Assembly (NCBI GenBank): GCA_041879355.1 | Contig: CP089922.1 | Coordinates: 2,912,498-2,976,497 of the forward strand | Origin: Cyanobacteria bacterium LVE1205-1 | GTDB taxonomy: Bacteria; Cyanobacteriota; Cyanobacteriia; CAIUCS01 | Length of the DNA: 64,000 nt | Direction: 5' to 3' | In this document: piece after piece, positions 12,303 through 27,418 of the stretch | Numbering within the stretch: the stretch's first letter is position 1 | Layout: every line of letters starts with the position of its first letter | Notes under the pieces: generated by a model | Database searches by the model: none | Told to the model about the DNA's origin: nothing | The model's input: only the letters and a program-made list of their open reading frames with translations | Position numbers and translations under genes: made by a program

Positions 12303-13411
12303 CTAAAAAGGGGGAACCTCCACCCAAGACCTGCGGTGGTCCGACTCACGGGCAAGATCCATTAAAAGTTGGGAATAAACCCCTTCTTTCAAGGAAGGAA
12401 CCGGGTTCTGTCCAGATTCAATTGCCTCCACCCATCTATCGATCATCCCAATGAAGGGGGCAAGCCGCCCATCCCCATAGGTTTGGGGGAATGACAATCG
12501 TTCCGGGATATGAACCTCTGTTAAATTATCCTCCCCAGTGGCTGTCCAAAGCTGAAACCCATGGACATAATCGTTTTGATTGCCACTGCCTAGAATAATG
12601 GTGCCGCGATCGCCATATACCTCAACCCAATGCCCCCGACCATGGTGGGTAACAGCACTCAGATTAATGTGACAGGGAACCCCATCCATCAACTCCAAGG
12701 TAAGACTAGCACTATCCTCTGCATCAACGGTTTTCATCTCCCCCGTCAGGGGATCGGGGCGAGTTGGGATAGAGGTGGATAGAAAAGCGGAGAGCCGTTT
12801 TATTCCACCAAATAACCAATGGACATAATCAAAGGTATGGGAACCCAAGGCACCGAGGCAACCTCCCCCCAGATTCTTACTAGAGTACCAGTTCCAGGCT
12901 CGCATGGGATTGGAACGACTGGACATGAGCCAGTCTATTTGAATGAGCCGTTTTTTCCCCACAAAACCACTGTCTAACAGCTCTGCCAAATATTGCCAGG
13001 CAGGAACAGCCCGATACTCAAAGTCAACCAACACCCGAACCCCCTCCTTGATAGCTAATTGATGGAGTTCCTGCGCTTCCGGGGTTGTCAACGTGACTGG
13101 TTTTTCCAGCAACAAATGTTTGCCAGCCCCGATGATGGCTTTCCCCATCTCGTAATGGAGAAATGGGGGGTGGACAGACTAACTGCCTGCACCTGAGGGA
13201 GTGCTAGTAAGTTGGAGAGATGGGCACAGGCATGGGGAATTTCATAGGTGTTTGCAATTGCCTTTGCCGTTTCCATTTCCCGGTGATAAACTGCCACAAC
13301 GTGGGTATGGGGATGAAGTTGGAAGCCAGGAATATGGACTTTTTGTCCAAATCCCGTACCCACCACACCGACTCCTACAGTAAGTTGTTTAGAGGGTGAC
13401 ATAGTTCCCAT
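12303..13411 (-). CDS. Gfo/Idh/MocA-family NAD(P)-dependent oxidoreductase. Frameshifted in a G6 run at 13165-13170.
   Basis: Rossmann N-terminus VGVVGTGFGQKVHIPGF. After frame correction it reads TPHFLHYEMGKAIIGAGKHLLLEKP, the canonical EKP motif. Confidence 0.75.
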
Positions 13412-13501: not shown

Positions 13502-14343
13502 TCAATCAAAGTCAGGGCAACCAGGGATATCGACTAAAATCAGGGGACGTTTTTCCAGAAATGCCTCTTTACCCTCACTTCCCTCTTCGGTCATGTAATA
13601 CAGTAAAGTTGCATTTCCTGCTAATTCCTGGAGTCCTACCTGCCCATCACAGTCAGCATTAAAGGCAGACTTGAGACAACGGATGGCAATTGGGCTTTTT
13701 TCTAAAATTTCCAGTGCCCACCGAACTCCTTCTGGTTCCAATTGTTCTATGGGAACCACTGCATTGACCAACCCCATTTCTAATGCTTGCACTGCATTGT
13801 ATTGACGACAAAGATACCAAATCTCCCGTGCCTTTTTCTGTCCAACAATTCGTGCCAAGTAACTGGCACCAAACCCTCCATCAAAACTACCGACTTTCGG
13901 TCCAGTTTGTCCAAAAATGGCATTCTCAGCGGCTATGGTTAAATCACAAAGGAGATGAAGCACATGTCCCCCCCAATGGCATACCCGGCAACCAAGGCAA
14001 TCACCACTTTAGGGATGGAACGGATTAATCGTTGCAGATCCAGTACATTTAATCGTGGCACACCCGACTCATCCACATATCCTGCCTGTCCCCTGACACC
14101 TTGATCCCCTCCTGCACAAAAAGCATACTGACCATCCCTATGGGGTCCCCCACCCGTCAGTAAAATTACCCCAATTCGTTGGTCATCCCTAGCATTTCCA
14201 AATGCTTCACACAGTTCTACCACAGTATGGGGGCGAAAAGCATTACGCTTATGGGGGCGGTTTATGGTAATTTTGGCTATCCCATCTGCCTTTTCGTAAC
14301 TAATATCTTCATAAACTTTGGCGATTTGCCATTGAATTTGCAT
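13502..14343 (-). CDS. menB: 1,4-dihydroxy-2-naphthoyl-CoA synthase MenB (phylloquinone pathway). Frameshifted in a C7 run at 13968-13974.
   Basis: Crotonase fold with the characteristic MenB residues ([31 protein letters not shown] after correction). Confidence 0.85.
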
Positions 14344-14437: not shown

Positions 14438-15886
14438 ATGACTACCCCAAATACCCCGTTTTCAAGTCCCTTAAGTTCCCAGTGTCATCCCCCATCGGAT
14501 TCCATACTCCCCTTCCATATTCCATCATTGTTAAAGCGTTATCGTTCTGGTCAGTCTAGCCCACCGCAAATCATTCGGATGGTGTATGAGCGGATTCGCC
14601 AGTATGGTGATCCTGCGATTTGGATCACCCTCGCTTCATTGGAAGACAGCCTGAAACAGGCAGAATCCATTACTGGGCAAACTGACCTACCCCTTTATGG
14701 AATCCCGTTTGCCATCAAAGACAACATTGATTGGAGCGGGGCACCCACCACCGCTGGTTGTCCCCGTTATACCTACTTCCCTGACCATTCAGCCCCAGTG
14801 GTGGAGCGATTAATTGCAGCCGGTGCTATTGCCATTGGTAAAACCAATTTAGACCAATTTGCCACAGGTCTGGTTGGAACCCGAACCCCCTATGGCGTTT
14901 GCCGCAACCCTTTCCATGCTGATTATATTCCCGGCGGGTCTAGTAGTGGTTCCGCCTGCGCCGTTTCCGCAGGCTTAGTGAGTTTTGCCCTTGGAACGGA
15001 CACAGCCGGTTCTGGTCGGGTTCCAGCAGCCTTTACGAATATTGTGGGGTTAAAACCAAGTTGCGGACGTATCAGTACCCGAGGGCTAGTACCAGCGGTT
15101 CGCACCCTGGATTGCGTCTCAATTTTTACCTTAACCGGTGAGGAAGCGGCGGAAGTTTTGGCAGTGGCTGGACAGTTTGATCCATTGGATCCATTTGCCA
15201 AACCCATACCAGTGTATGAATTACCCAGTTTGAATCAATTGCGGGTTGGAGTACCCTACCCGCATCAGTTAAACTTCTTTAACAATTCTGATGCAGAAAC
15301 TAACTATGCCAATGCCCTAAATGTTCTTAAAGACAGAGGGGCTACCTTTCATGAGTTTGACTTTGACCCATTTCATGCCACTGCATTGATGCTCTATGAA
15401 GGGGCGTGGGTTGCAGAACGTACCGCTGCCGTGGGGGAATTCATCAATACCCAATCCGAAGGGGAAACCAACTCTATTGTGCGTTCAATTATCAATGGTG
15501 GCTATGGATATCGGGCAATGGATGCCTTTCAAGACTACTATCGGTTGATGGAGTACCGTCGTCAAGCCCAGTCAACCTGGGGGTTGGTGGATATTTTGGC
15601 ACTGCCGACCACAGGCACCATTTATACAGTAAAGGACATTGCCAATCATCCGTTGGAATTGAATCGAAATTTAGGACGGTATACCAACTTTGTTAACTTA
15701 ATGGATCTATCAGCCGTTTCAGTTCCCAGTGGGTTTCAGGCAAATGGATTGCCAACGGGAATTACTTTTATGGCACAATCGGGATACGATGAAGCTTTGT
15801 GCAAGCTTAGTCAGGAATTTCAACACATGATGAACTTGCCGGTTGGTGCCCTCCATGTGATACCTTATTCCACAGTTGTATCTTAA
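14438..15886 (+). CDS. Allophanate hydrolase, N-terminal amidase-signature (AS) domain
   Basis: 482 aa. GKTNLDQFATGLVG...GGSSSGSACAV...GTDTAGSGRVPAAF is the AS-family signature. It ends at TAA 15884-15886. Confidence 0.7.
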   Translation: MTTPNTPFSSPLSSQCHPPSDSILPFHIPSLLKRYRSGQSSPPQIIRMVYERIRQYGDPAIWITLASLEDSLKQAESITGQTDLPLYGIPFAIKDNIDWSGAPTTAGCPRYTYFPDHSAPVVERLIAAGAIAIGKTNLDQFATGLVGTRTPYGVCRNPFHADYIPGGSSSGSACAVSAGLVSFALGTDTAGSGRVPAAFTNIVGLKPSCGRISTRGLVPAVRTLDCVSIFTLTGEEAAEVLAVAGQFDPLDPFAKPIPVYELPSLNQLRVGVPYPHQLNFFNNSDAETNYANALNVLKDRGATFHEFDFDPFHATALMLYEGAWVAERTAAVGEFINTQSEGETNSIVRSIINGGYGYRAMDAFQDYYRLMEYRRQAQSTWGLVDILALPTTGTIYTVKDIANHPLELNRNLGRYTNFVNLMDLSAVSVPSGFQANGLPTGITFMAQSGYDEALCKLSQEFQHMMNLPVGALHVIPYSTVVS

Positions 15887-18884: not shown

Positions 18885-19334
18885 TTATTCGTATAGCCAT
18901 GAAGTTAGAGAGGGTTGCCAATCAACCAATTCTTCCTCTTGAAACCACAAACTAATTTCTTGCTGAGCCGTAGGGATGGCATCGGAGCCGTGAATTAAAT
19001 TACGTCCCACACTGACTCCAAAGTCACCCCGAATGGTTCCTAATTCAGCATTTAATGGATTGGTTGCTCCAATTATTTTCCGGGCAGCAGCGACAACACC
19101 TTCTCCTTCCCAAACCATTGCTACAACTGGACTGGAGGTAATAAAGGTGATCAGGCTATTAAAAAAAGGACGGTCTCGATGGATGGCGTAATGGTTTTCA
19201 GCCAGGGTTTGACTTACCTTGACTAATTTCAACCCAATTAATGTAAACCCTTTTGCCTCAAATCGACGGATTACTTCGCCTACAAGTTTGCGTTGTACGC
19301 CATCGGGCTTAATTGCAATAAAAGTACGTTCCAA
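18885..19334 (-). CDS. ndk: Nucleoside diphosphate kinase
   Basis: 149 aa. [15 protein letters not shown]...NLIHGSDA carries the NDK active-site His motif. Confidence 0.95.
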
Positions 19335-19439
19335 AGAATGACTCCTTGAACAAGAAAATTTCGTACTTAATTATACCATTCACCAAGGAACTTTTTACCT
19401 TCTGTTGAACTCTCCCTCTGTTAAAACGAGAGGGATTCT

Positions 19440-20478
19440 AAAACAAAATCGCCAGTGAAATGGGGATTCACGCAACCCAGATTACTCAATGGAAAAAACA
19501 GGCTCAGGAAGGACTCAAGGAGATCTTTGCGGATCGCCGAGGGAAGAGCCAGAGCCAGGAACCCTTAATTGAGAACCTTTACCAGAACATTGGTCGGCTC
19601 CAAGTGGAACTGGAGTGGTTGCAAAAAATCTGGTCTTACCTCTTGAATCAAAGCGGGAACTCATTGAACCCGCAAACCGAGAGATCAGCATTGTGCGTCA
19701 GTGCGAATTGCTGGGACTCAATCGAAGTAGCGACTACTACGAAGCAGCCAGGGAAAGCTCACATAAGGAGTACCTGATGGGAAAGTTGGATGAGCAGTAT
19801 ACCCAAACTCCCTTCTACAGGGTATTGGGAATGACGGAAGTCCTGCGAGCCCAAGGAGAAGAGGTCAATCCTAAACAAGTCCGTCGTCTACTCAGGGTAA
19901 TGGGTTTAGAAGCTATCTATCCCAAACCCAAAATCTCATCGCTAGGTGAGAATAGTCGTCGCTATCCCTATCTGCTCAGGGAAAAAGCCATTGAGCGTCC
20001 GAACCACGTTTGGAGTACTGACATCACATACATTCCACTGGACAAGGGATTTATTTACCTTGTAGCGGTGATTGACTGGTACAGCCAGTATGTCCTCTCA
20101 TGGGAAGTCTCCAATACCCTGGATGTCCACTTTTGTCTGGATGTTCTGGAAAGTACTCTCTCTCAAGGGATGCCAGAGATTTTCAATACCGACCAGGGCA
20201 GCCAATTTACCAGTCTTGCTTTTACTGACCGTCTACTCAAAGGAGGGATAACAATCAGTTAGGATGGGCGTGGTCGAGCCCTAGACAACATTTTTGTGGA
20301 ACGGATTTGGCACTCATTGAAATACGAGGAGCTGTACCTAAAGTCCTACAGGTCTGTGCCAGAGGCAATTCAAGGGATTGGGGACTATTTCAGATTTTAT
20401 AACCACGATCGTTTACATCAGTCGTTGGATTATCAGACACCGGCTATGGTTCACAGAAAAGGCAATGCCTCCTTGTAA
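19440..20478 (+). mobile_element. IS3-family insertion sequence remnant. orfA is 5'-truncated, and orfB (DDE integrase) is internally frameshifted.
   Basis: ORF 19460-19777 is an orfA leucine-zipper part (GIHATQITQWKK...LQVELEWLQK). ORFs 19615-20262 and 20296-20478 are the DDE core (HVWSTDITYIP...DNIFVERIWHSLKYEE). About the first 30 aa of orfA and the left inverted repeat are missing. Confidence 0.75.
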
Positions 20479-20518
20479 TGGATTCGCATTGGGTCTTCCT
20501 GTCCTATGTCCAGCATCA

Positions 20519-20640
20519 ACCAGCAAATACCTTACAAGGAGGTGATGTAATAATGTAACACCAACAACACATGCACTGCTAAGCGAGATTACTTCTTAAA
20601 TTCACTCTTTTTCTGTCTTGACATTGGGGAGTACCATGGG
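20519..20640. repeat. 120-bp repeat element, copy 1. It carries an AGGAGG ... ATG-TAA start-stop motif.
   Basis: About 80% identical to 33537-33655. It begins CCTTACAAGGAGGTGATGTAATAATGTAACA and ends TTGGGGAGTACCAT. Confidence 0.5.
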
Positions 20641-20774
20641 GGGAGGTTGCTTAAAGAGAGGAGTATTAAAGTATTAAGGATGTTAGTCGGTGGTGGCGGT
20701 GATTCTTGTTCCATTAATTAACCAGCGAAATTCAATAACATAAAAATAGACCAAATTAGAGGAAAAAATCATCT

Positions 20775-21404
20775 ATGGCAACTACATCCGAAGACGTATG
20801 GCGACTTTTAGCCGAATTAGCAACTGCTCAAGCTGAATTAACTGCTTCTCAAAAAGAAACTGACCTACTATTGAAGGAAGTCAGTCAACAACAGAAGGAA
20901 AACGAGCGACGACAACAGGAAAATGCCCAACAACAGAGGGAAAATGCCCAACAACTCAAAGAATTAGGACGGCAAATTGGTGGACTTGGTGCCAAATTCG
21001 GCAGCTTTACCGAAGGACTTGCCCTTCCTTCAATGGAAACGATTCTCAGACAACGGTTGGGTATGGAAGTGATCAGTCCCAGTGTGCGAGTGAGTAAAGA
21101 TGGAAAACACCTAGAAATTGATGTTCTTGCCTATACTAATGGTGAGCTAAATACTGCCTATATCGTCGAGGTTAAAAGTCATGGTAGAGAGGAATCCATT
21201 ACACAATTAATAAGTATTTTGCAACGGTTTCGCAGCTTTTTCCCTGAACACAAAGATAAAAAACTCTATGGCATATTAGCGGCGGTGGATTTATCCCCAG
21301 AATTACGGGAAAAAATTCTACAAGAAGGGTTTTATGTGGCTCGGATTCATGACCAGGTATTTGAATTAGATATTCCCGATACTTTTCAACCTCAAGCTTA
21401 TTAA
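20775..21404 (+). CDS. Paralog 1. N-terminal coiled coil plus C-terminal Hjc-like PD-(D/E)xK nuclease-fold domain (possibly DUF3782-type). Function unknown.
   Basis: 209 aa. The N-terminus is heptad-rich with (QQQRENA)n. The C-terminus reads HLEIDVLAYTNGELNTAYIVEVKSH, matching D-x15-E-x-K of PD-(D/E)xK nucleases. Confidence 0.6.
   Translation: MATTSEDVWRLLAELATAQAELTASQKETDLLLKEVSQQQKENERRQQENAQQQRENAQQLKELGRQIGGLGAKFGSFTEGLALPSMETILRQRLGMEVISPSVRVSKDGKHLEIDVLAYTNGELNTAYIVEVKSHGREESITQLISILQRFRSFFPEHKDKKLYGILAAVDLSPELREKILQEGFYVARIHDQVFELDIPDTFQPQAY
20911..20951 (+). repeat. In-frame 21-bp tandem repeat (CAACAGAGGGAAAATGCCCAA), 2 units
   Basis: It encodes (Q)QQRENA within paralog 1. The same array has 4 units in paralog 2. 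Confidence 0.8.
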
Positions 21405-21504
21405 AACATCAAAGGCGATCGCTTTCACCCTGATGTTGTGAGGGATGATTGCTTGTATTTAGCGGTAAATATCCTTTCAATACCCAATATCAAGAACAAT
21501 CACC

Positions 21505-21659
21505 CTGGTTGACTGACAAAAGTTGTACGCCCTCACCCCCAACCCCTCTCCTAGGGGGCGAGGGGAGCCGAGCCACCCCTCCGCTTCCCTCGCCCATCGG
21601 GCGAGGGCTAGGGTGAGGGCTTTCAGGGTTTTGGCTGAGAAGTTTTGTCAGTCAATCAG
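21505..21659. mobile_element. MITE family A, copy 1. 17-bp TIRs CTG(G/A)TTGACTGACAAAA; 9-bp TSD ACAATCACC at 21496-21504 and 21660-21668.
   Basis: The TIRs were read directly. The internal sequence is a long GC-rich palindrome (CCCTCACCCC...GGGTGAGGG). It is absent from the otherwise identical downstream region of paralog 2. Confidence 0.7.
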
Positions 21660-21901
21660 ACAATCACCTTTTTTGTTTCCATGCAATTAGTTTCTCCAGC
21701 GAGTGGGGTTAATTGACAATGGACAATAGATAACTATTCACTATTCACCAAAAAGGCGATCCCAGGGGGGAGGTTGCTTAAAGAGAGGAGTATTAAAGTA
21801 TTAAGGATGTTAGTTGGTGGTGGCGGTGATTCTTGTCCCATTGATTAACCAGCGAAATTCAGTAACATAAAAATAGACCAAATTAGAGGAAAAAATTATC
21901 T

Positions 21902-22573
21902 ATGGCAACTACATCCGAAGACGTATGGCGACTTTTAGCCGAATTAGCAACTGCTCAAGCTGAATTAACTGCTTCTCAAAAAGAAACTGACCTACTATTG
22001 AAGGAAGTCAGTCAACAACAGAAGGAAAACGAGCGACGACAACAGGAAAATGCCCAACAACAGAGGGAAAATGCCCAACAACAGAGGGAAAATGCCCAAC
22101 AACAGAGGGAAAATGCCCAACAACTCAAAGAATTAGGACGGCAAATTGGTGGACTTGGTGCCAAATTCGGCAGCTTTACCGAAGGACTTGCCCTTCCTTC
22201 AATGGAAACGATTCTCAGACAACGGTTGGGCATGGAAGTGATCAGTCCCAGTGTGCGAGTGAGTAAAGATGGAAAACACCTAGAAATTGATGTTCTTGCC
22301 TATACTAATGGTGAGCTAAATACTGTTTATGTCGTCGAGGTTAAAAGTCATGCTAGAGAGGAATCCATTACACAATTAATAAGTATTTTGCAACGGTTTC
22401 GTAGCTTTTTCCCTGAACACAAAGATAAAAAACTCTATGGCATATTAGCGGCGGTGGATTTATCCCCAGAATTACGGGAAAAAATTCTACAAGAAGGGTT
22501 TTATGTGGCTCGGATTCATGACCAGGTATTTGAATTAGATATTCCCGATACTTTTCAACCTCAAACTTATTAA
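21902..22573 (+). CDS. Paralog 2 of the coiled-coil / PD-(D/E)xK-like gene (tandem duplicate)
   Basis: 223 aa, near-identical to 20775-21404 including about 135 bp of upstream sequence. It differs by 2 extra 21-bp repeat units and a few substitutions (A->V, I->V, G->A next to the EVK motif; A->T at the C-terminus). Confidence 0.6.
   Translation: MATTSEDVWRLLAELATAQAELTASQKETDLLLKEVSQQQKENERRQQENAQQQRENAQQQRENAQQQRENAQQLKELGRQIGGLGAKFGSFTEGLALPSMETILRQRLGMEVISPSVRVSKDGKHLEIDVLAYTNGELNTVYVVEVKSHAREESITQLISILQRFRSFFPEHKDKKLYGILAAVDLSPELREKILQEGFYVARIHDQVFELDIPDTFQPQTY
22037..22120 (+). repeat. In-frame 21-bp tandem repeat, 4 units (1 imperfect + 3 perfect)
   Basis: GACAACAGGAAAATGCCCAA followed by 3x CAACAGAGGGAAAATGCCCAA. 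Confidence 0.8.
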
Positions 22574-22935
22574 AACATCAAAGGCGATCGCTTTTGGTCT
22601 GATGTTGTGAGGGATGATTGCTTGTATTTAGTAGTAAATATCTTTTCAATTAGTTTCCCCAGCGAGTGGGAACCAGATACTCCAGCAATCGGAACTGACG
22701 TTGAATATGAATGGACAACATTATCTCCGCCTTTCCAATCACTCCCAAAACCAATATAGTTTATACTATCAACCAATGAATACTGAATTTATTAAGAAAT
22801 TTAATATATACACGGACACTTTATAGTATTAACACGGTTTAATTTAAGGCTGATTGGGTTCAGGGGTTAAGTTTAACTTGATTAAAAAAGCGATTGCCCT
22901 AGGAGTCAACCATCAAAGCTGGGATTCTAAAACAG

Positions 22936-24086
22936 TTATTCCATCAACGCTTCTTTCAATGCCTCAATAATCCGAGTATTAGCTTTGGGAAAGGGGAAAT
23001 CGGTTAATTGCTCTAAGGTTACCCAGCGGATTTCATCACATTCTAGGGGTTGGGGCTCCCCACTCAAATATTGACAATGGTGGACATATAACGTAACCCA
23101 AAAGTGGCTATAGGTATGATCAATGGTTATCAGGGGATCCCCCACTGTCACCAGAATGCCTAATTCCTCTTGGATTTCCCGATGAATGCATTCCTCTACG
23201 GTTTCTCCGGGCTCAATTTTACCTCCAGGGAATTCCCATAAACCGCCTAACAACCCCCCTTGACGACGGCGATCGATTAAGATTTCACCATTCTGGTTTC
23301 GGATAACAGCAACCCCAATGAATTTATGGGGAAGAGTTTGTCTTACTTTGGCTGACGGTATTTCCATCGTTTTTCCTAGAATATGGGCTTGACAGTGGGA
23401 TTGCCATGGGCAACTGGAACAATTGGGATGTTTGGGCAGACAAACTATGGCTCCCAAATCCATTAAGGCTTGGTTGAAATCACGGGGTTGATCCTGAGAT
23501 AACAATTGGTCTGTCAATTTCCAGAGGTCAGGGATAGCTTGATTGACGGGAACAGGCAATGCGATGAGTCGTGCTAAAACTCGTTTGACATTAGTGTCTA
23601 AAATAGATACAGGTTGATTATAAGCACTACTCAAAATGCCTCCTGCTGTTGTTCGACCGATTCCCGGCAAGGTCAATAAGGATTGGAGGTTGGGGGGACT
23701 TCACCAGTATGGCATCGAACCATCTGCTGGGCAGCTTGATGAAGATTGCGGGCACGGGCATAATACCCTAACCCTTCCCATGCTTTTAATACCTGTTGTT
23801 GACTGGCATTGGCTAGACTGATGAGTGTAGGAAATTCAATCAACCAACGATGAAAATATGGAATTACTGTTTTTACCTGGGTTTGCTGTAACATGATCTC
23901 AGAAATCCATATTTTGTATGGATCTTGATTGTGCCGCCATGGCAGATCCCTCCCAAATAGGGTATACCACTGAAGCAATGATTGTTGCAAGTGGGGGATG
24001 GAAGTAGCGTTTAACTGCACTTTATTCATAACAGTTAATTCCTCCCCTGCGGATTCCCTCCCGAGAAATAGTTCCAGAGTTTTCAT
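22936..24086 (-). CDS. mutY: A/G-specific adenine DNA glycosylase MutY (HhH-GPD plus C-terminal NUDIX domain). Frameshifted in a G6 run at 23692-23697.
   Basis: N-terminal part (LLQWYTLFGRDLPWR...ISEIMLQQTQV). C-terminal part has the 4Cys FeS loop (CLPKHPNCSSCPWQSHC) and a NUDIX box (GLWEFPGGKIEPGETVEECIHREIQEELG). The start was chosen at MKTLELF, because the upstream 21 codons of the ORF lie inside a MITE. Confidence 0.8.
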
Positions 24087-24102
24087 AATATGAGTTGCTG
24101 AG

Positions 24103-24256
24103 CTGATTGACTGACAAAACTTCTCAGCCAAAACCCCGAAAGCCCTCACCCTAGCCCTCTCCCGATGGGAGAGGGAACCGGAGGGTGGATCGGCTCCCCT
24201 CGCCCCCTGGGAGAGGGGTTGGGGGTGAGAGCGTACAACTTTTGTCAGTCAACCAG
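24103..24256. mobile_element. MITE family A, copy 2 (inverted relative to copy 1). 9-bp TSD GTTGCTGAG at 24094-24102 and 24257-24265.
   Basis: TIRs CTGATTGACTGACAAAA / TTTTGTCAGTCAACCAG, with an internal GC-rich palindrome homologous to 21505-21659. Confidence 0.7.
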
Positions 24257-24365
24257 GTTGCTGAGTTTGGTGGTACCACTTCACAGCAAAAGTAGCATAC
24301 TATAATTTCAGGTATTCCTCTAATAAATATAAATACCGAAAACGGATGTTAATACGTTTATTTTT

Positions 24366-25915
24366 ATGAAAATAGGTGTGTGGATACTCGGGGATCAACT
24401 CTCCCTCTACGGGTCAGCGATCGCACCCCTACCCGTTGGCAGCCCTGTAATCCTCATTGAATCCCTAAACCATGGGCGATCGCGCCCTTACCATCAGCAA
24501 AAACTTATTTTAGTATGGTCTGCCATGCGTCATTTTGCTATGGAACTCAAGCAACGGGGTTATGACGTAACCTATACTGAAGCGGAAGATTTTTCTACGG
24601 CATTGTCAAACTGGATAACTTTCCAGCAGATTACCCTAGTACGGGTAATGACCCCAACAGATAAACCATTTCGGTCACTGATTCATTCACTTCAACTTTC
24701 CTGTCCCGTAGAACAAGTTGCCAACAATCAATTCCTTTGGAGTTCGGAAGCATTTCTCCAATGGGCAAAGTCACAAAAACGAGTATTAATGGAAAACTTT
24801 TACCGTGAGGGGAGGAAGCGTTTTCAGGTTTTGATGCAGCCCGATGGACAACCGATTGGAAATCAGTGGAATTTTGATAAAGAAAACCGTAAGCCTCCCC
24901 GAAAAGCAGATCCCAACTTCAATCCACCCCCACCCCTTTGGTTTCCTCCCGACTCCATCACCCAAACAGTGATTGAAAAAGTCCATACCCTTGACTTTTC
25001 CGTCTATGGTGACAGTCAACCATTTGGATGGGCTGTCACCCGTACCCAGGCTCTCGCTGTCTTGGAAAACTTTATAGAATACCGTCTCAAGACCTTTGGT
25101 CCCTATGAGGATGCCATGGTTACAGGAGAAGACAGTTTGTGGCATTCACTTCTATCCCCCTACCTTAATCTGGGTTTACTAACGCCGTGGGAAGTTATAC
25201 AGCGGGTTGAGTTGGAATATCATACACGGGAAACCATGGGCGAGCAAAGGATTGCCCTGAATAACATTGAAGGGATGATCAGACAGGTGATGGGTTGGCG
25301 AGAATACATGCGGGGTATTTACGAATGGAGTGACCCCACTTATCCCAATCAAAACTGGTTTAACCATCACCACCCCCTTCCCCCCTTCTTTTGGGATGCC
25401 ACTCAAACTGACATGAATTGTCTACATCAATGCCTTCAACAAACAGAGCGACTGGGGTATGCCCATCATATTCAACGGCTTATGGTATTAAGCAATTTTG
25501 CCCTCATTGCAGGAATTCAACCTCAGGCAATTGAACAATGGTTTCATAGTGCTTATGTAGATGCCTATGATTGGGTGATGCAAACAAATGTTATTGGCAT
25601 GGGACAGTATGCCGATGGGGGGTTCTCGCCTCCAAACCCTATGCCGCTTCTGCCAATTACATCAACAAAATGAGTGATTATTGTAAAGCCTGTCCCTATG
25701 ATCCCAAGTCCCGTATTGGGGAAACTGCCTGTCCCTTTAATTTCTTTTACTGGGATTTTCTCCATCGTCATCGCCAAAAACTCAGTCATCAAGGGCGGAT
25801 GGGTTTCATACTCAAAAATCTGGATCAAATGGATGAGGCAGAACTCAATGGAATTCGTCAGCAGGCTATTCGCTGGCATCAAAGGTACAATAGTCATCCA
25901 TCCACCATGGCATAA
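24366..25915 (+). CDS. FeS-BCP family cryptochrome/photolyase (PhrB-like (6-4) photolyase type). Frameshifted in a G6 run at 25617-25622.
   Basis: N-terminal photolyase-related domain. The C-terminal part has the conserved Cys cluster (DYCKACPYDPKSRIGETACPFN) that binds [4Fe-4S] in this family. Confidence 0.7.
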
Positions 25916-25957
25916 TCCATTCACTCTTTTTAGCCCTTCATTAAACTATCCTCCACC

Positions 25958-27418
25958 ATGTCTCGGACACTCCTTTGGTATCGTACCGATCTTCGCATCC
26001 ATGATCATGAAGCACTCCACCGGGCACTCCTGTCCCATTCCCTACCCATTCCCTATTATTGCGTTGACCCCCGTCATTTTGGTTCTACTTCGTTTGGGTT
26101 TCCTAAGACAGGATCCTTTCGAGCCCAATTTTTGTTAGAAAGTATTACTGATCTCCGCCATTCCCTACGCCAACGGGGCAGTGATTTAATTGTGGAATCA
26201 GGCTTGCCGGAGGTAATGATTCCCAAAATTGTCCAAGAATTGCATATTGAAACCATCACTTGGTCTGTGGCAACTACAGCCGAGGAATTAGCGGTGGAAA
26301 ATGCAGTAAAACAAGCCCTGCTCCCCTTTCATAGGAAAATCCAAACCTATTGGGATACTACTCTTCTCCATCCTGAGGATTTATCATTTACGTTGGATAG
26401 CACGCCTGAATTATTTACCCATTTTCGTAAGCGAATTCAACGGGATGGCATGGTTCGTCCGTGCTGGCCAACACCTTCTCAACTTCCATCTTTGGTTGAC
26501 AGGATTGGGGGAGAATTACCAACTCTAGAGGATTGGGGTTTGCCAATCCCTCAACCCGATTCCCGTCGGGTTCTACCCTTTTGCGGTGGAGAAACGACAG
26601 GTTTACAGCGGTTGAATGACTATATTTGGCGGGGCGATCGCCTGCGTTCCTACAAAGAAACGCGAAATAATATGTTAAATCCTGACGACTCAACCAAGTT
26701 TTCCCCTTGGCTCTCCTACGGATGTCTCTCACCCCGTTACATAGCCGCTGAAGTTACCACCTATGAACAAGAGCGTGTCAAAAATGACTCAACCTACTGG
26801 CTAATCTTTGAGTTATGGTGGCGGGATTATTTTCGGTTTATGAGTGTTAAACATGGCAATAACCTATTCAAACTAGGAGGATTACAACAACTTAGGCTGT
26901 CCTGGAAACAGGATTGGCAACGATTTGAACAGTGGTGTCAGGGATATACAGGGTTTCCATTAGTTGATGCCGCCATGCGTGAACTACGGGGCACTGGATG
27001 GATATCTAACCGCGGGCGACAAAATGTAGCTAGTTTCCTCACTAAAAATTTAGGAATTGATTGGCGTATGGGGGCAGAGTGGTTTGAATCTTTACTCATA
27101 GATTACGATGTGTGTAGTAATTGGGGTAACTGGAACTACACAGCAGGGGTAGGGAATGATGGACGGGGATTCCGTTGGTTTAATATTACAAAACAATCAA
27201 AAGACTACGACCCCCAAGGGGATTACCTGAGATACTGGCTGCCGGAATTAGCATCGTTGCCTGCTGCCTATATTCATGAACCATCAAAGTTAACCCAAGA
27301 GCAACAACTTCGGTATGGTATGCGGATGGGACTCCATTACCCCAAACCAATTGTGGATTTATTTGCTTCTGCTAAGGCGAACGAACGCCATTATGAATCA
27401 ACTGGGGCAATTCATTAA
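25958..27418 (+). CDS. Cryptochrome DASH / DNA photolyase family protein
   Basis: 486 aa with the N-terminal LLWYRTDLRIHDHEAL motif and the FAD-binding domain (TGFPLVDAAMRELRGTGWISNRGRQNVASFL...NWGNWNYTAGVGNDGR). Confidence 0.8.
   Translation: MSRTLLWYRTDLRIHDHEALHRALLSHSLPIPYYCVDPRHFGSTSFGFPKTGSFRAQFLLESITDLRHSLRQRGSDLIVESGLPEVMIPKIVQELHIETITWSVATTAEELAVENAVKQALLPFHRKIQTYWDTTLLHPEDLSFTLDSTPELFTHFRKRIQRDGMVRPCWPTPSQLPSLVDRIGGELPTLEDWGLPIPQPDSRRVLPFCGGETTGLQRLNDYIWRGDRLRSYKETRNNMLNPDDSTKFSPWLSYGCLSPRYIAAEVTTYEQERVKNDSTYWLIFELWWRDYFRFMSVKHGNNLFKLGGLQQLRLSWKQDWQRFEQWCQGYTGFPLVDAAMRELRGTGWISNRGRQNVASFLTKNLGIDWRMGAEWFESLLIDYDVCSNWGNWNYTAGVGNDGRGFRWFNITKQSKDYDPQGDYLRYWLPELASLPAAYIHEPSKLTQEQQLRYGMRMGLHYPKPIVDLFASAKANERHYESTGAIH

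Follow-up and report, generated by a model that had tools for sequence, protein, structure and literature searches.

In Pfam the name DUF3782 stands for the N-terminal coiled-coil stalks of a prokaryotic PD-(D/E)XK endonuclease family (Hartmann et al., 2016, eLife 5:e11861, PMC4786415). In this work we have analyzed two neighboring genes of this family in a stretch of 64,000 nt from Cyanobacteria bacterium LVE1205-1 (GenBank assembly GCA_041879355.1, contig CP089922.1, positions 2,912,498 to 2,976,497 of the forward strand), which as a whole is called the window here and to which coordinates refer unless otherwise stated. A preliminary description of this DNA had reported the pair as a recent tandem duplication of a gene for which no annotated function was known. 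The latter statement has to be withdrawn, as the family is already present in Pfam as DUF3782 and its members have been described as endonucleases with a coiled-coil stalk. The two proteins have the same stalk and C-terminal nuclease core as the proteins of Hartmann et al. (2016), from which they differ in nothing essential; their stalks are composed of plain heptads, without the nonad or beta-layer insertions found in crenarchaeal DUF3782 members. Neither of the two papers found to cite the family mentions tandem arrays, modular shuffling of heptads or a common leader.

The nearest solved folds are those of NucS/EndoMS, AF1548 and Can2/Card1. NucS/EndoMS (PDB 2vld and 5gke) shares only 15-22% sequence identity with the pair, and NucS is a single-copy repair gene whose product has an N-terminal beta-barrel domain for DNA binding and dimerisation and no helical stalk. 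Can2, Card1 and Cdn1 possess a CARF sensor and are activated by cyclic oligoadenylate, whereas the pair has neither a CARF domain nor a CRISPR neighborhood. Hjc, which works as a dimer, carries D...E-x-K on a small PD-(D/E)XK core as the pair is predicted to do, but it has no stalk and is not among the top structural matches of the pair. The CoCoNuTs (Bell et al., 2024, eLife 13:RP94800) are conflict systems which also combine coiled coils with nucleases; these are however multi-gene systems with a McrB GTPase and McrC, in which "tandem" refers to nuclease domains in one large helicase protein, whereas here whole small genes stand in tandem, and no McrB, McrC or helicase gene was found within 10 kb on either side of the pair.

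Our best explanation of the locus is that it consists of two adjacent DUF3782 cassettes, each made up of a leader, a gene and a 3' flank, which together represent an ordinary small array, and taken as a whole we consider this account to be probable. Judged by their profile scores both proteins are members of the catalogued family, with matches to DUF3782 (PF12644) of 31.6 bits for copy 1 and 28.6 bits for copy 2, above the gathering score of 24.4. At 90% clustering there are 3,087 relatives, mostly from Microcystis and named "DUF3782 domain-containing protein" by NCBI; when the C-terminal 149 aa were used alone as the query, 1,304 representative clusters were recovered, 110 of them at E ≤ 1e-30. 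A second domain, PF26618 (DUF8196), is listed as a weak precomputed match for some relatives, but gave no Pfam match here and was absent from the literature search, which likewise yielded nothing for the annotation "Chordopoxvirus fusion protein".

The motif D-x15-E-x-K can be read in both copies (D130-x15-E146-x-K148 in the numbering of copy 2), and when 120 sequences with 32-73% identity to the query were aligned, the residues E94, E128, D130, E146 and K148 were conserved in at least 90%. The AlphaFold model built on that alignment (predicted local distance difference test, pLDDT, 94.6) shows a helix from residue 5 to 108 followed by beta-beta-beta-alpha-beta-alpha-beta-beta. The model includes the alpha-beta-beta-beta-alpha-beta core of the PD-(D/E)XK superfamily, with the predicted catalytic D...(D/E)-x-K and a Glu on helix alpha-1, and the architecture is of the DUF3782 type, i.e., a conserved C-terminal domain placed after a helical stalk of variable length. 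Foldseek returned NucS/EndoMS, Cdn1, AF1548, Card1 and Can2, all with a probability of 1.00. Since model, conserved residues and Foldseek matches agree, the heptad coiled coil and nuclease fold of the preliminary description find support as a stalk on a predicted PD-(D/E)XK superfamily domain; its assignment to the Hjc type does not, as the Hjc profile (PF01870) matched copy 2 only, with 12.5 bits (E 0.15) against a cutoff of 21.1. Nor did the proteins match NucS/EndoMS (NCBIfam NF003270; 15.3 bits against 216), their N-terminal part being one long helix, or NERD (PF08378; 13.0 and 15.6 bits against 22.1). Searches by sequence of all PDB chains gave coiled-coil noise only, whether the query was one protein or the profile of the family.

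The two units are arranged head to tail at 20638-21707 and 21765-22670, with leaders, genes and 3' flanks on the plus strand, and each is composed of a 137-nt leader, an open reading frame (ORF) of 209 or 223 aa and a common 3' flank. The direct repeat between 20638-20937 and 21765-22064 is 98% identical, with a start-to-start spacing of 1127/1169 nt, and in a gapped alignment the sequence from 20638 to about 21480 is collinear with that from 21765 to about 22650, the sole gap being one indel of 42 nt. When unit 1 was compared by BLAST with the 64-kb window the matches were unit 1 itself and unit 2 and nothing else, and the repeat is therefore far beyond chance. This agrees with the preliminary description, which had reported two near-identical units including upstream sequence and both ORFs at the positions given here; the shared upstream sequence amounts to 137 nt with 5 differences. 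The homologous unit proper, however, measures about 860-906 bp, and the 1.1 kb previously reported counts in a miniature inverted-repeat transposable element (MITE) and a 57-nt spacer.

The leader of copy 1 (20638-20774) abuts an IS3 remnant upstream and is 96.5% identical to the leader of copy 2 (21765-21901). Gene copy 1 (20775-21404) encodes the 209 aa protein, in which heptad parsing finds 8 stalk heptads ahead of the PD-(D/E)XK domain; within its stalk the program TRF detects an in-frame array of 3.3 units of 21 bp at 20886-20955. The conserved 3' flank of this copy, delimited by alignment with copy 2 and a third copy described below, extends over 21405-21495 and contains the HIP1 palindrome GCGATCGC; its first 77 nt or so share 88-91% identity with the corresponding flanks of homologues in Microcystis. 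The MITE with its 9-bp target-site duplication follows (21496-21668), and then, at 21708-21764, the inter-unit spacer, whose 3' end is TTCACCAAAAAGGCGATCCCA, a sequence which likewise precedes the leader in the third copy and in those of other genomes. Gene copy 2 (21902-22573) encodes the 223 aa protein with 10 stalk heptads and the PD-(D/E)XK domain with E94, D130, E146 and K148; its 21-bp in-frame stalk array (22013-22124; TRF and alignment) has 5.3 units, and its conserved 3' flank (22574-22670) is free of the MITE.

At the protein level the two copies are identical at 205 of 209 positions, with one gap of 14 aa. A codon-by-codon comparison of the coding sequences found differences at 7 nt, leading to 4 replacements and 2 synonymous changes; the replacements, in copy-1 numbering, are A128V (which takes two adjacent changes), I130V, G137A and A208T, all four of them conservative, and three of the four are located at most 5 residues from E-x-K. 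These counts, and the position of three replacements near E-x-K, are as first reported, and so is the in-frame expansion of the coiled-coil repeat (TRF, 3.3 versus 5.3 copies with a 21-nt period): the 42-bp stalk indel corresponds to two extra perfect 21-bp units in copy 2, i.e., two more RENAQQQ heptads. In the non-coding parts the first 76 nt or so of the 3' flanks are more divergent than the leaders. What could not be upheld is the suggestion of diversification around the catalytic site. The pair has a synonymous divergence (dS) of 0.026 and a non-synonymous divergence (dN) of 0.011, the ratio of 0.44 being compatible with neutral expectation (binomial p = 0.42), the changes are conservative, and among 120 relatives the nuclease domain hardly varies; there is no evidence of adaptive change at the active site of the pair. 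That the three clustered replacements form a hypervariable patch was considered and rejected: across the family these positions are conserved, and in the comparison with the 120 closest clusters the variant TVYVVEVKSHAR was unique to copy 2. The sequence LNTAYIVEVKSHAR occurs in 87 of these clusters, the G variant of copy 1 in 15 and the V-V variant of copy 2 in none.

Across the family the variable part is the stalk. In 119 of the 120 closest clusters the protein length (195 to 244 aa) equals 6 modulo 7, and the C-terminal 147 residues are almost invariant. The stalks contain 6-13 heptads per protein drawn from a vocabulary of 41, among them KEVSQQQ, AELATAQ, KETDLLL, AELTAAQ, KETDKQL and KENAQQQ, which gives 53 architectures in 112 proteins; the ten most frequent heptads account for about 80% of occurrences. 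In 116 more distant representatives the region before the conserved part ranges from 5 to 154 aa and exact internal repeats are present in 67 of them. With stalks so variable and a C-terminal domain almost invariant, it follows that diversification of the repeat is family-wide and diversification of the active site is not. The rapidly diversifying repeat noted in the preliminary description is thus real, and in the survey of relatives both copy number and repeat length vary. Within Microcystis arrays the computed dN/dS of the nuclease domain is 0.05-0.3, as expected of a head under purifying selection, and the heads of one array often differ very little from each other (dS 0.01-0.06) despite unequal stalk lengths. 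The core of the heptads is semi-polar, with T, V, L or N at position 3 and Q or L at position 7, and the expanded heptads of copy 2 have N and Q there. A short in-frame repeat in a helical spacer, in which slippage alters the geometry of a nuclease complex, is known from the coiled-coil spacer of the Type I restriction subunit HsdS: EcoR124I and EcoR124II carry TAEL two and three times, respectively, and the consequence of this difference is proven. The HsdS spacer, however, parts two DNA-recognition domains, whereas the DUF3782 stalk parts a short N-terminal cap from the nuclease head.

It is normal for DUF3782 genes to stand in tandem arrays, to undergo gene conversion and to be present in several copies per genome. 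Two to seven copies are held by 13 of the 79 loci that were fetched, with six in a row in Microcystis sp. BLCC-F210, and two finished Microcystis genomes contain at least 8 and at least 15 copies, counting the fetched loci alone. The organism of the window has a third copy on contig Ga0496538_0457 (L086, 7700-8720), which encodes 195 aa with 6 heptads and is provided with the same leader and 3' flank; upstream of it lies a truncated C-terminal fragment of a further copy, after it an IS66 transposase gene, and nearby are PDDEXK_9 and AAA-ATPase-like genes. The third copy agrees with copy 2 at all five informative leader sites, with copy 1 at the six core informative sites (which comprise all coding differences except the last), and at the last coding site it returns to agreement with copy 2. 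Across the three copies the pattern, AAAAABBBBBBAABBABBB, departs from random order (runs test, P = 0.034). In addition the related genome REEB444 has the same gene-spacer-leader layout with a homologous spacer. The units are tandem and near-identical, as first reported, but a simple recent duplication does not fit; because the three copies are mosaic and a related genome shares the layout, array turnover with gene conversion describes the near identity of the pair better than a single clean recent duplication does. Full-length relatives with 55-63% identity in Thiocapsa, Thiocystis and Methylococcaceae (L048, L053-L060, L065-L067, L072) suggest, on the strength of this identity, horizontal transfer of DUF3782 between phyla. 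These gammaproteobacterial relatives come from freshwater habitats and some are paired. In Microcystis sp. BLCC-F210 there is also a four-copy array (L017, 18422-20950) of a divergent DUF3782 subfamily with about 38% identity to the query; it is separated by about 6 kb from three close homologues that form an array on the other strand.

The first 86 nt or so of each leader (20638-20723 and 21765-21850) make up a conserved element whose orientation is invariably that of the gene which follows it. The element, of about 90 nt, was also found elsewhere (L003, 8025-8093; L001, 7099-7167; L008, 3707-3765; L088-L115). In Microcystis and relatives it also precedes genes for Phd/YefM antitoxins, ParD antitoxins and MNT-type nucleotidyltransferases as well as two small uncharacterised genes, and in the Microcystis arrays it is present on the first gene only, internal copies retaining just the proximal 60 nt or so. 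A leader common to DUF3782 and toxin-antitoxin (TA) type cassettes is the best argument, albeit a soft one, for a conflict-type role. Upstream of the arrays in Microcystis, small ORFs of 62-69 aa have been called; since these overlap the leader element, they are likely to be spurious. A scan of 19300-24400 with Rfam gave no leader match, only two sub-threshold matches to miRNA models on the MITE hairpins; scans for sigma-70 promoters and terminators found none in the leaders, with fewer sites than in shuffled sequences; and the consensus RNA fold of 28 leader copies had no supported structure (-2.2 kcal/mol, one covarying pair). An integron gene cassette was also considered, and the attC-like hairpin is excluded because that 28-copy fold showed no supported structure. 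Each leader of the pair contains an exact tandem 8-mer, AGTATTAA twice (20662-20677 and 21789-21804), whose tandem arrangement is not preserved where the element occurs in Microcystis.

The genes within 10 kb of the pair encode an amidase/allophanate hydrolase, an ABC permease, a phosphoribosyltransferase, a DUF760 protein, Ndk, a split MutY, a photolyase-related protein and a photolyase. A census of neighbors at 39 diverse loci, which covered the two closest ORFs on either side (149 proteins), gave matches to 204 Pfam families, mostly housekeeping and none of them in more than five proteins; the neighbors differ at nearly every locus, and IS (insertion sequence) elements adjoin copies. PADLOC models matched Mad8 in three of the 149 proteins, IetA in two and ThsB in one. 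Neither a conserved partner nor a consistent defense island therefore emerges from this census and these scattered matches, and the pair does not form a type II TA module, no partner ORF being found in the window and no recurrent neighbor family in the census; the leader is its one connection with TA operons. The defense or conflict role raised in the preliminary description has the local context and the 39 loci against it; in its favor are the arrays of Microcystis, which are found in islets of Phd/ParE, UPF0175/DUF3368, RelB/ParE, HicAB and PIN genes and have a leader in common with TA operons. Searches of phage records and of PHROGs gave no match, and a plasmid collection gave one, from Sulfuricystis. 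The single relative in IMG/VR, UViG_3300044951_002702 (L087, 730-1254), encodes 174 aa with about three heptads, is placed at a contig edge and may represent host flank. Some 0.5 kb downstream of it comes a small ORF and then terminase-large-subunit-like and portal-like ORFs, which belong to a high-GC Mu-like element.

The account we prefer would work as follows. The protein is made up of a conserved N-terminal cap (MATTSEDVWRLL) and a polar heptad stalk of 8 or 10 modules, which is predicted to run unbroken into helix alpha-1 of a minimal PD-(D/E)XK core with E94, D130, E146 and K148. The stalks probably associate in parallel, as a dimer or trimer, and so unite two or three nuclease heads; the assembled heads would cut nucleic acid, most likely DNA, in a metal-dependent manner, and the number of heptads would set the distance from cap to head. 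Slippage of 21-bp units would always keep both the reading frame and the heptad phase, cassette duplication would give rise to tandem arrays, and gene conversion would keep the heads nearly identical while the stalks differ. The array would later have been hit by the IS3 element upstream and by the MITE between the copies. In its biology the pair would be an accessory, horizontally mobile single-gene cassette of the TA/conflict class and not a housekeeping gene. It is conceivable, though quite improbable, that DUF3782 arrays form an unrecognised class of single-gene conflict cassettes, in which identical heads sit on reshuffled stalks, stalk length or sequence serves as a ruler or pairing code, and the whole is deployed from the same 5' module of about 90 nt that drives TA operons in Microcystis and relatives. 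For the window itself the result is mainly corrective: the family is a catalogued one, the pair is a small array typical of it, and the neighborhood is housekeeping. The interest lies not in this particular pair but in family-level features, namely heads that stay constant while the stalks are reshuffled, and a leader that TA operons also possess. The DUF3782 family is very large, with a clear predicted enzymatic core and at least 15 copies in one bloom-forming Microcystis genome, and it offers experimental handles in constant heads borne on stalks rebuilt from a few heptad modules, in exchange between copies and in the leader common with TA operons.

Several points weigh against this account. 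The literature search found no experiment on any member of the DUF3782 family, and fold and active site are predictions. Because its core is very polar, the stalk could exist as one stable helix on its own, or could form a coiled coil that associates only weakly, and the variation in heptad number may be neutral slippage without functional meaning. The genes within 10 kb are of housekeeping or DNA repair type (ndk, mutY, photolyase), with no TA or defense gene there, and few defense families occur among the 149 neighbors of the census. Against PADLOC-DB 2.0 the pair itself had no significant match, the best being CARF_PDDEXK with 13.3 bits. The co-location of arrays and TA genes in Microcystis may be a base-rate effect, because Microcystis is very rich in TA genes. 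Finally, a stand-alone nuclease without a visible immunity partner would need some other means of self-protection.

It is possible, if unlikely, that the pair encodes a dedicated effector of anti-phage defense or abortive infection, a nuclease inactive until infection whose stalk variation would reflect an arms race with phage inhibitors. The core does resemble the effector domains of Can2/Card1/Cdn1, Shedu, HamA and NucC, the family is multi-copy and strain-variable, and the arrays of Microcystis lie in TA islets near CHAT, GmrSD and HEPN genes, with a few TIR, ThsB and Mad neighbors. On the other side, there is no PADLOC match for the pair (best E 0.012) and no conserved sensor or partner gene, the local context is housekeeping, and phage collections hold essentially no relatives or counter-genes; an arms race is further at odds with a nuclease surface that is conserved, not diversifying, and with stalk changes for which slippage alone can account. 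We regard as rather improbable a selfish cassette, homing- or addiction-like, in which the unit of leader, gene and 3' flank propagates itself and the nuclease serves the element and not the host. Such an element would explain why non-coding flanks are conserved across genera (the 3' flank, at 88-91% to Microcystis, equals or exceeds the protein identity of 74-87%) and why insertion sites vary between unrelated genes; the truncated extra copy that lies just 5' of copy 3, the mosaic exchanges among copies and the leader common with TA cassettes point the same way. Yet the cassette carries neither a recombinase nor a target-site signature, arrays with near-identical heads are atypical of homing endonuclease genes, and the HIP1 palindromes in the flanks are of a kind common all over these genomes (27 in the window).

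A housekeeping nuclease of the NucS/EndoMS or Hjc type, specific for structures arising in repair or recombination and duplicated by chance beside mutY and the photolyase genes, is decidedly improbable even though the best structural matches are to NucS/EndoMS, the core is minimal and without a specificity domain, the head is under strong purifying selection and the pair stands directly beside mutY, the photolyase-related gene and a photolyase gene. The repair-gene context is not conserved, given 204 flanking families at 39 loci, and the third copy adjoins IS66 and PDDEXK_9 genes; the family ranges from 1 to at least 15 copies per genome with a patchy, cross-phylum distribution, and the NucS and Hjc family models are unmatched. 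The cluster of mutY, the gene for the deoxyribodipyrimidine photolyase-related protein (DPRP) and the photolyase gene directly downstream (22936-27418) is an adjacency not seen at other DUF3782 loci. Extremely improbable is an assembly artefact, in which two strain alleles with 2 versus 4 repeats would have been misplaced in tandem in a metagenome-assembled genome. The source is indeed a metagenome assembly, neighboring genes show frameshift-type splits, and the two available assemblies differ by 3 indels in 19 kb; but the second, an independent Joint Genome Institute (JGI) assembly of the same organism (Ga0496538_1292), agrees base for base over the region (100% identity over 20500-22800) and also encodes the exact protein of copy 1. 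The flanks of the two units moreover differ: upstream, one has the IS3 remnant and the other the spacer, and copy 1 alone is followed by the MITE, which has a target-site duplication of its own. A homologue of the inter-unit spacer is present in another genome, and tandem arrays exist in finished Microcystis chromosomes.

The mobile elements next to the pair, an IS3 remnant upstream and a MITE 3' of copy 1 only, were correctly identified in the preliminary description. The IS3-family element (19460-20478, plus strand) has rve and HTH_21 domains in broken ORFs, consisting of a truncated OrfA-like part (19460-19777), an OrfB part running to an in-frame stop (19615-20262) and a C-terminal fragment (20296-20478); no matching terminal inverted repeats were found, and because of this and the stop-broken ORF the element is a remnant only and not an intact IS3. 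Several genes in the window are split: mutY (22936-24149, minus strand) into two overlapping ORFs with an HhH-GPD part and a NUDIX_4 part, and the GFO_IDH and enoyl-CoA hydratase genes likewise (12303-13411 and 13502-14343). The amidase gene (14438-15886) is intact in the window and split in the JGI assembly, and some of the frameshifts may be assembly errors and not pseudogenes. The MITE itself is 155 bp long (21505-21659) and G+C-rich, with imperfect terminal inverted repeats of about 34 nt, and is bounded by the 9-bp target-site duplication ACAATCACC at 21496-21504 and 21660-21668, features which together with its repetition identify it as a MITE. Its second copy, in inverted orientation (24103-24260, minus strand), is 94% identical, has a 9-bp target-site duplication GTTGCTGAG and is inserted between mutY and the photolyase-related gene.

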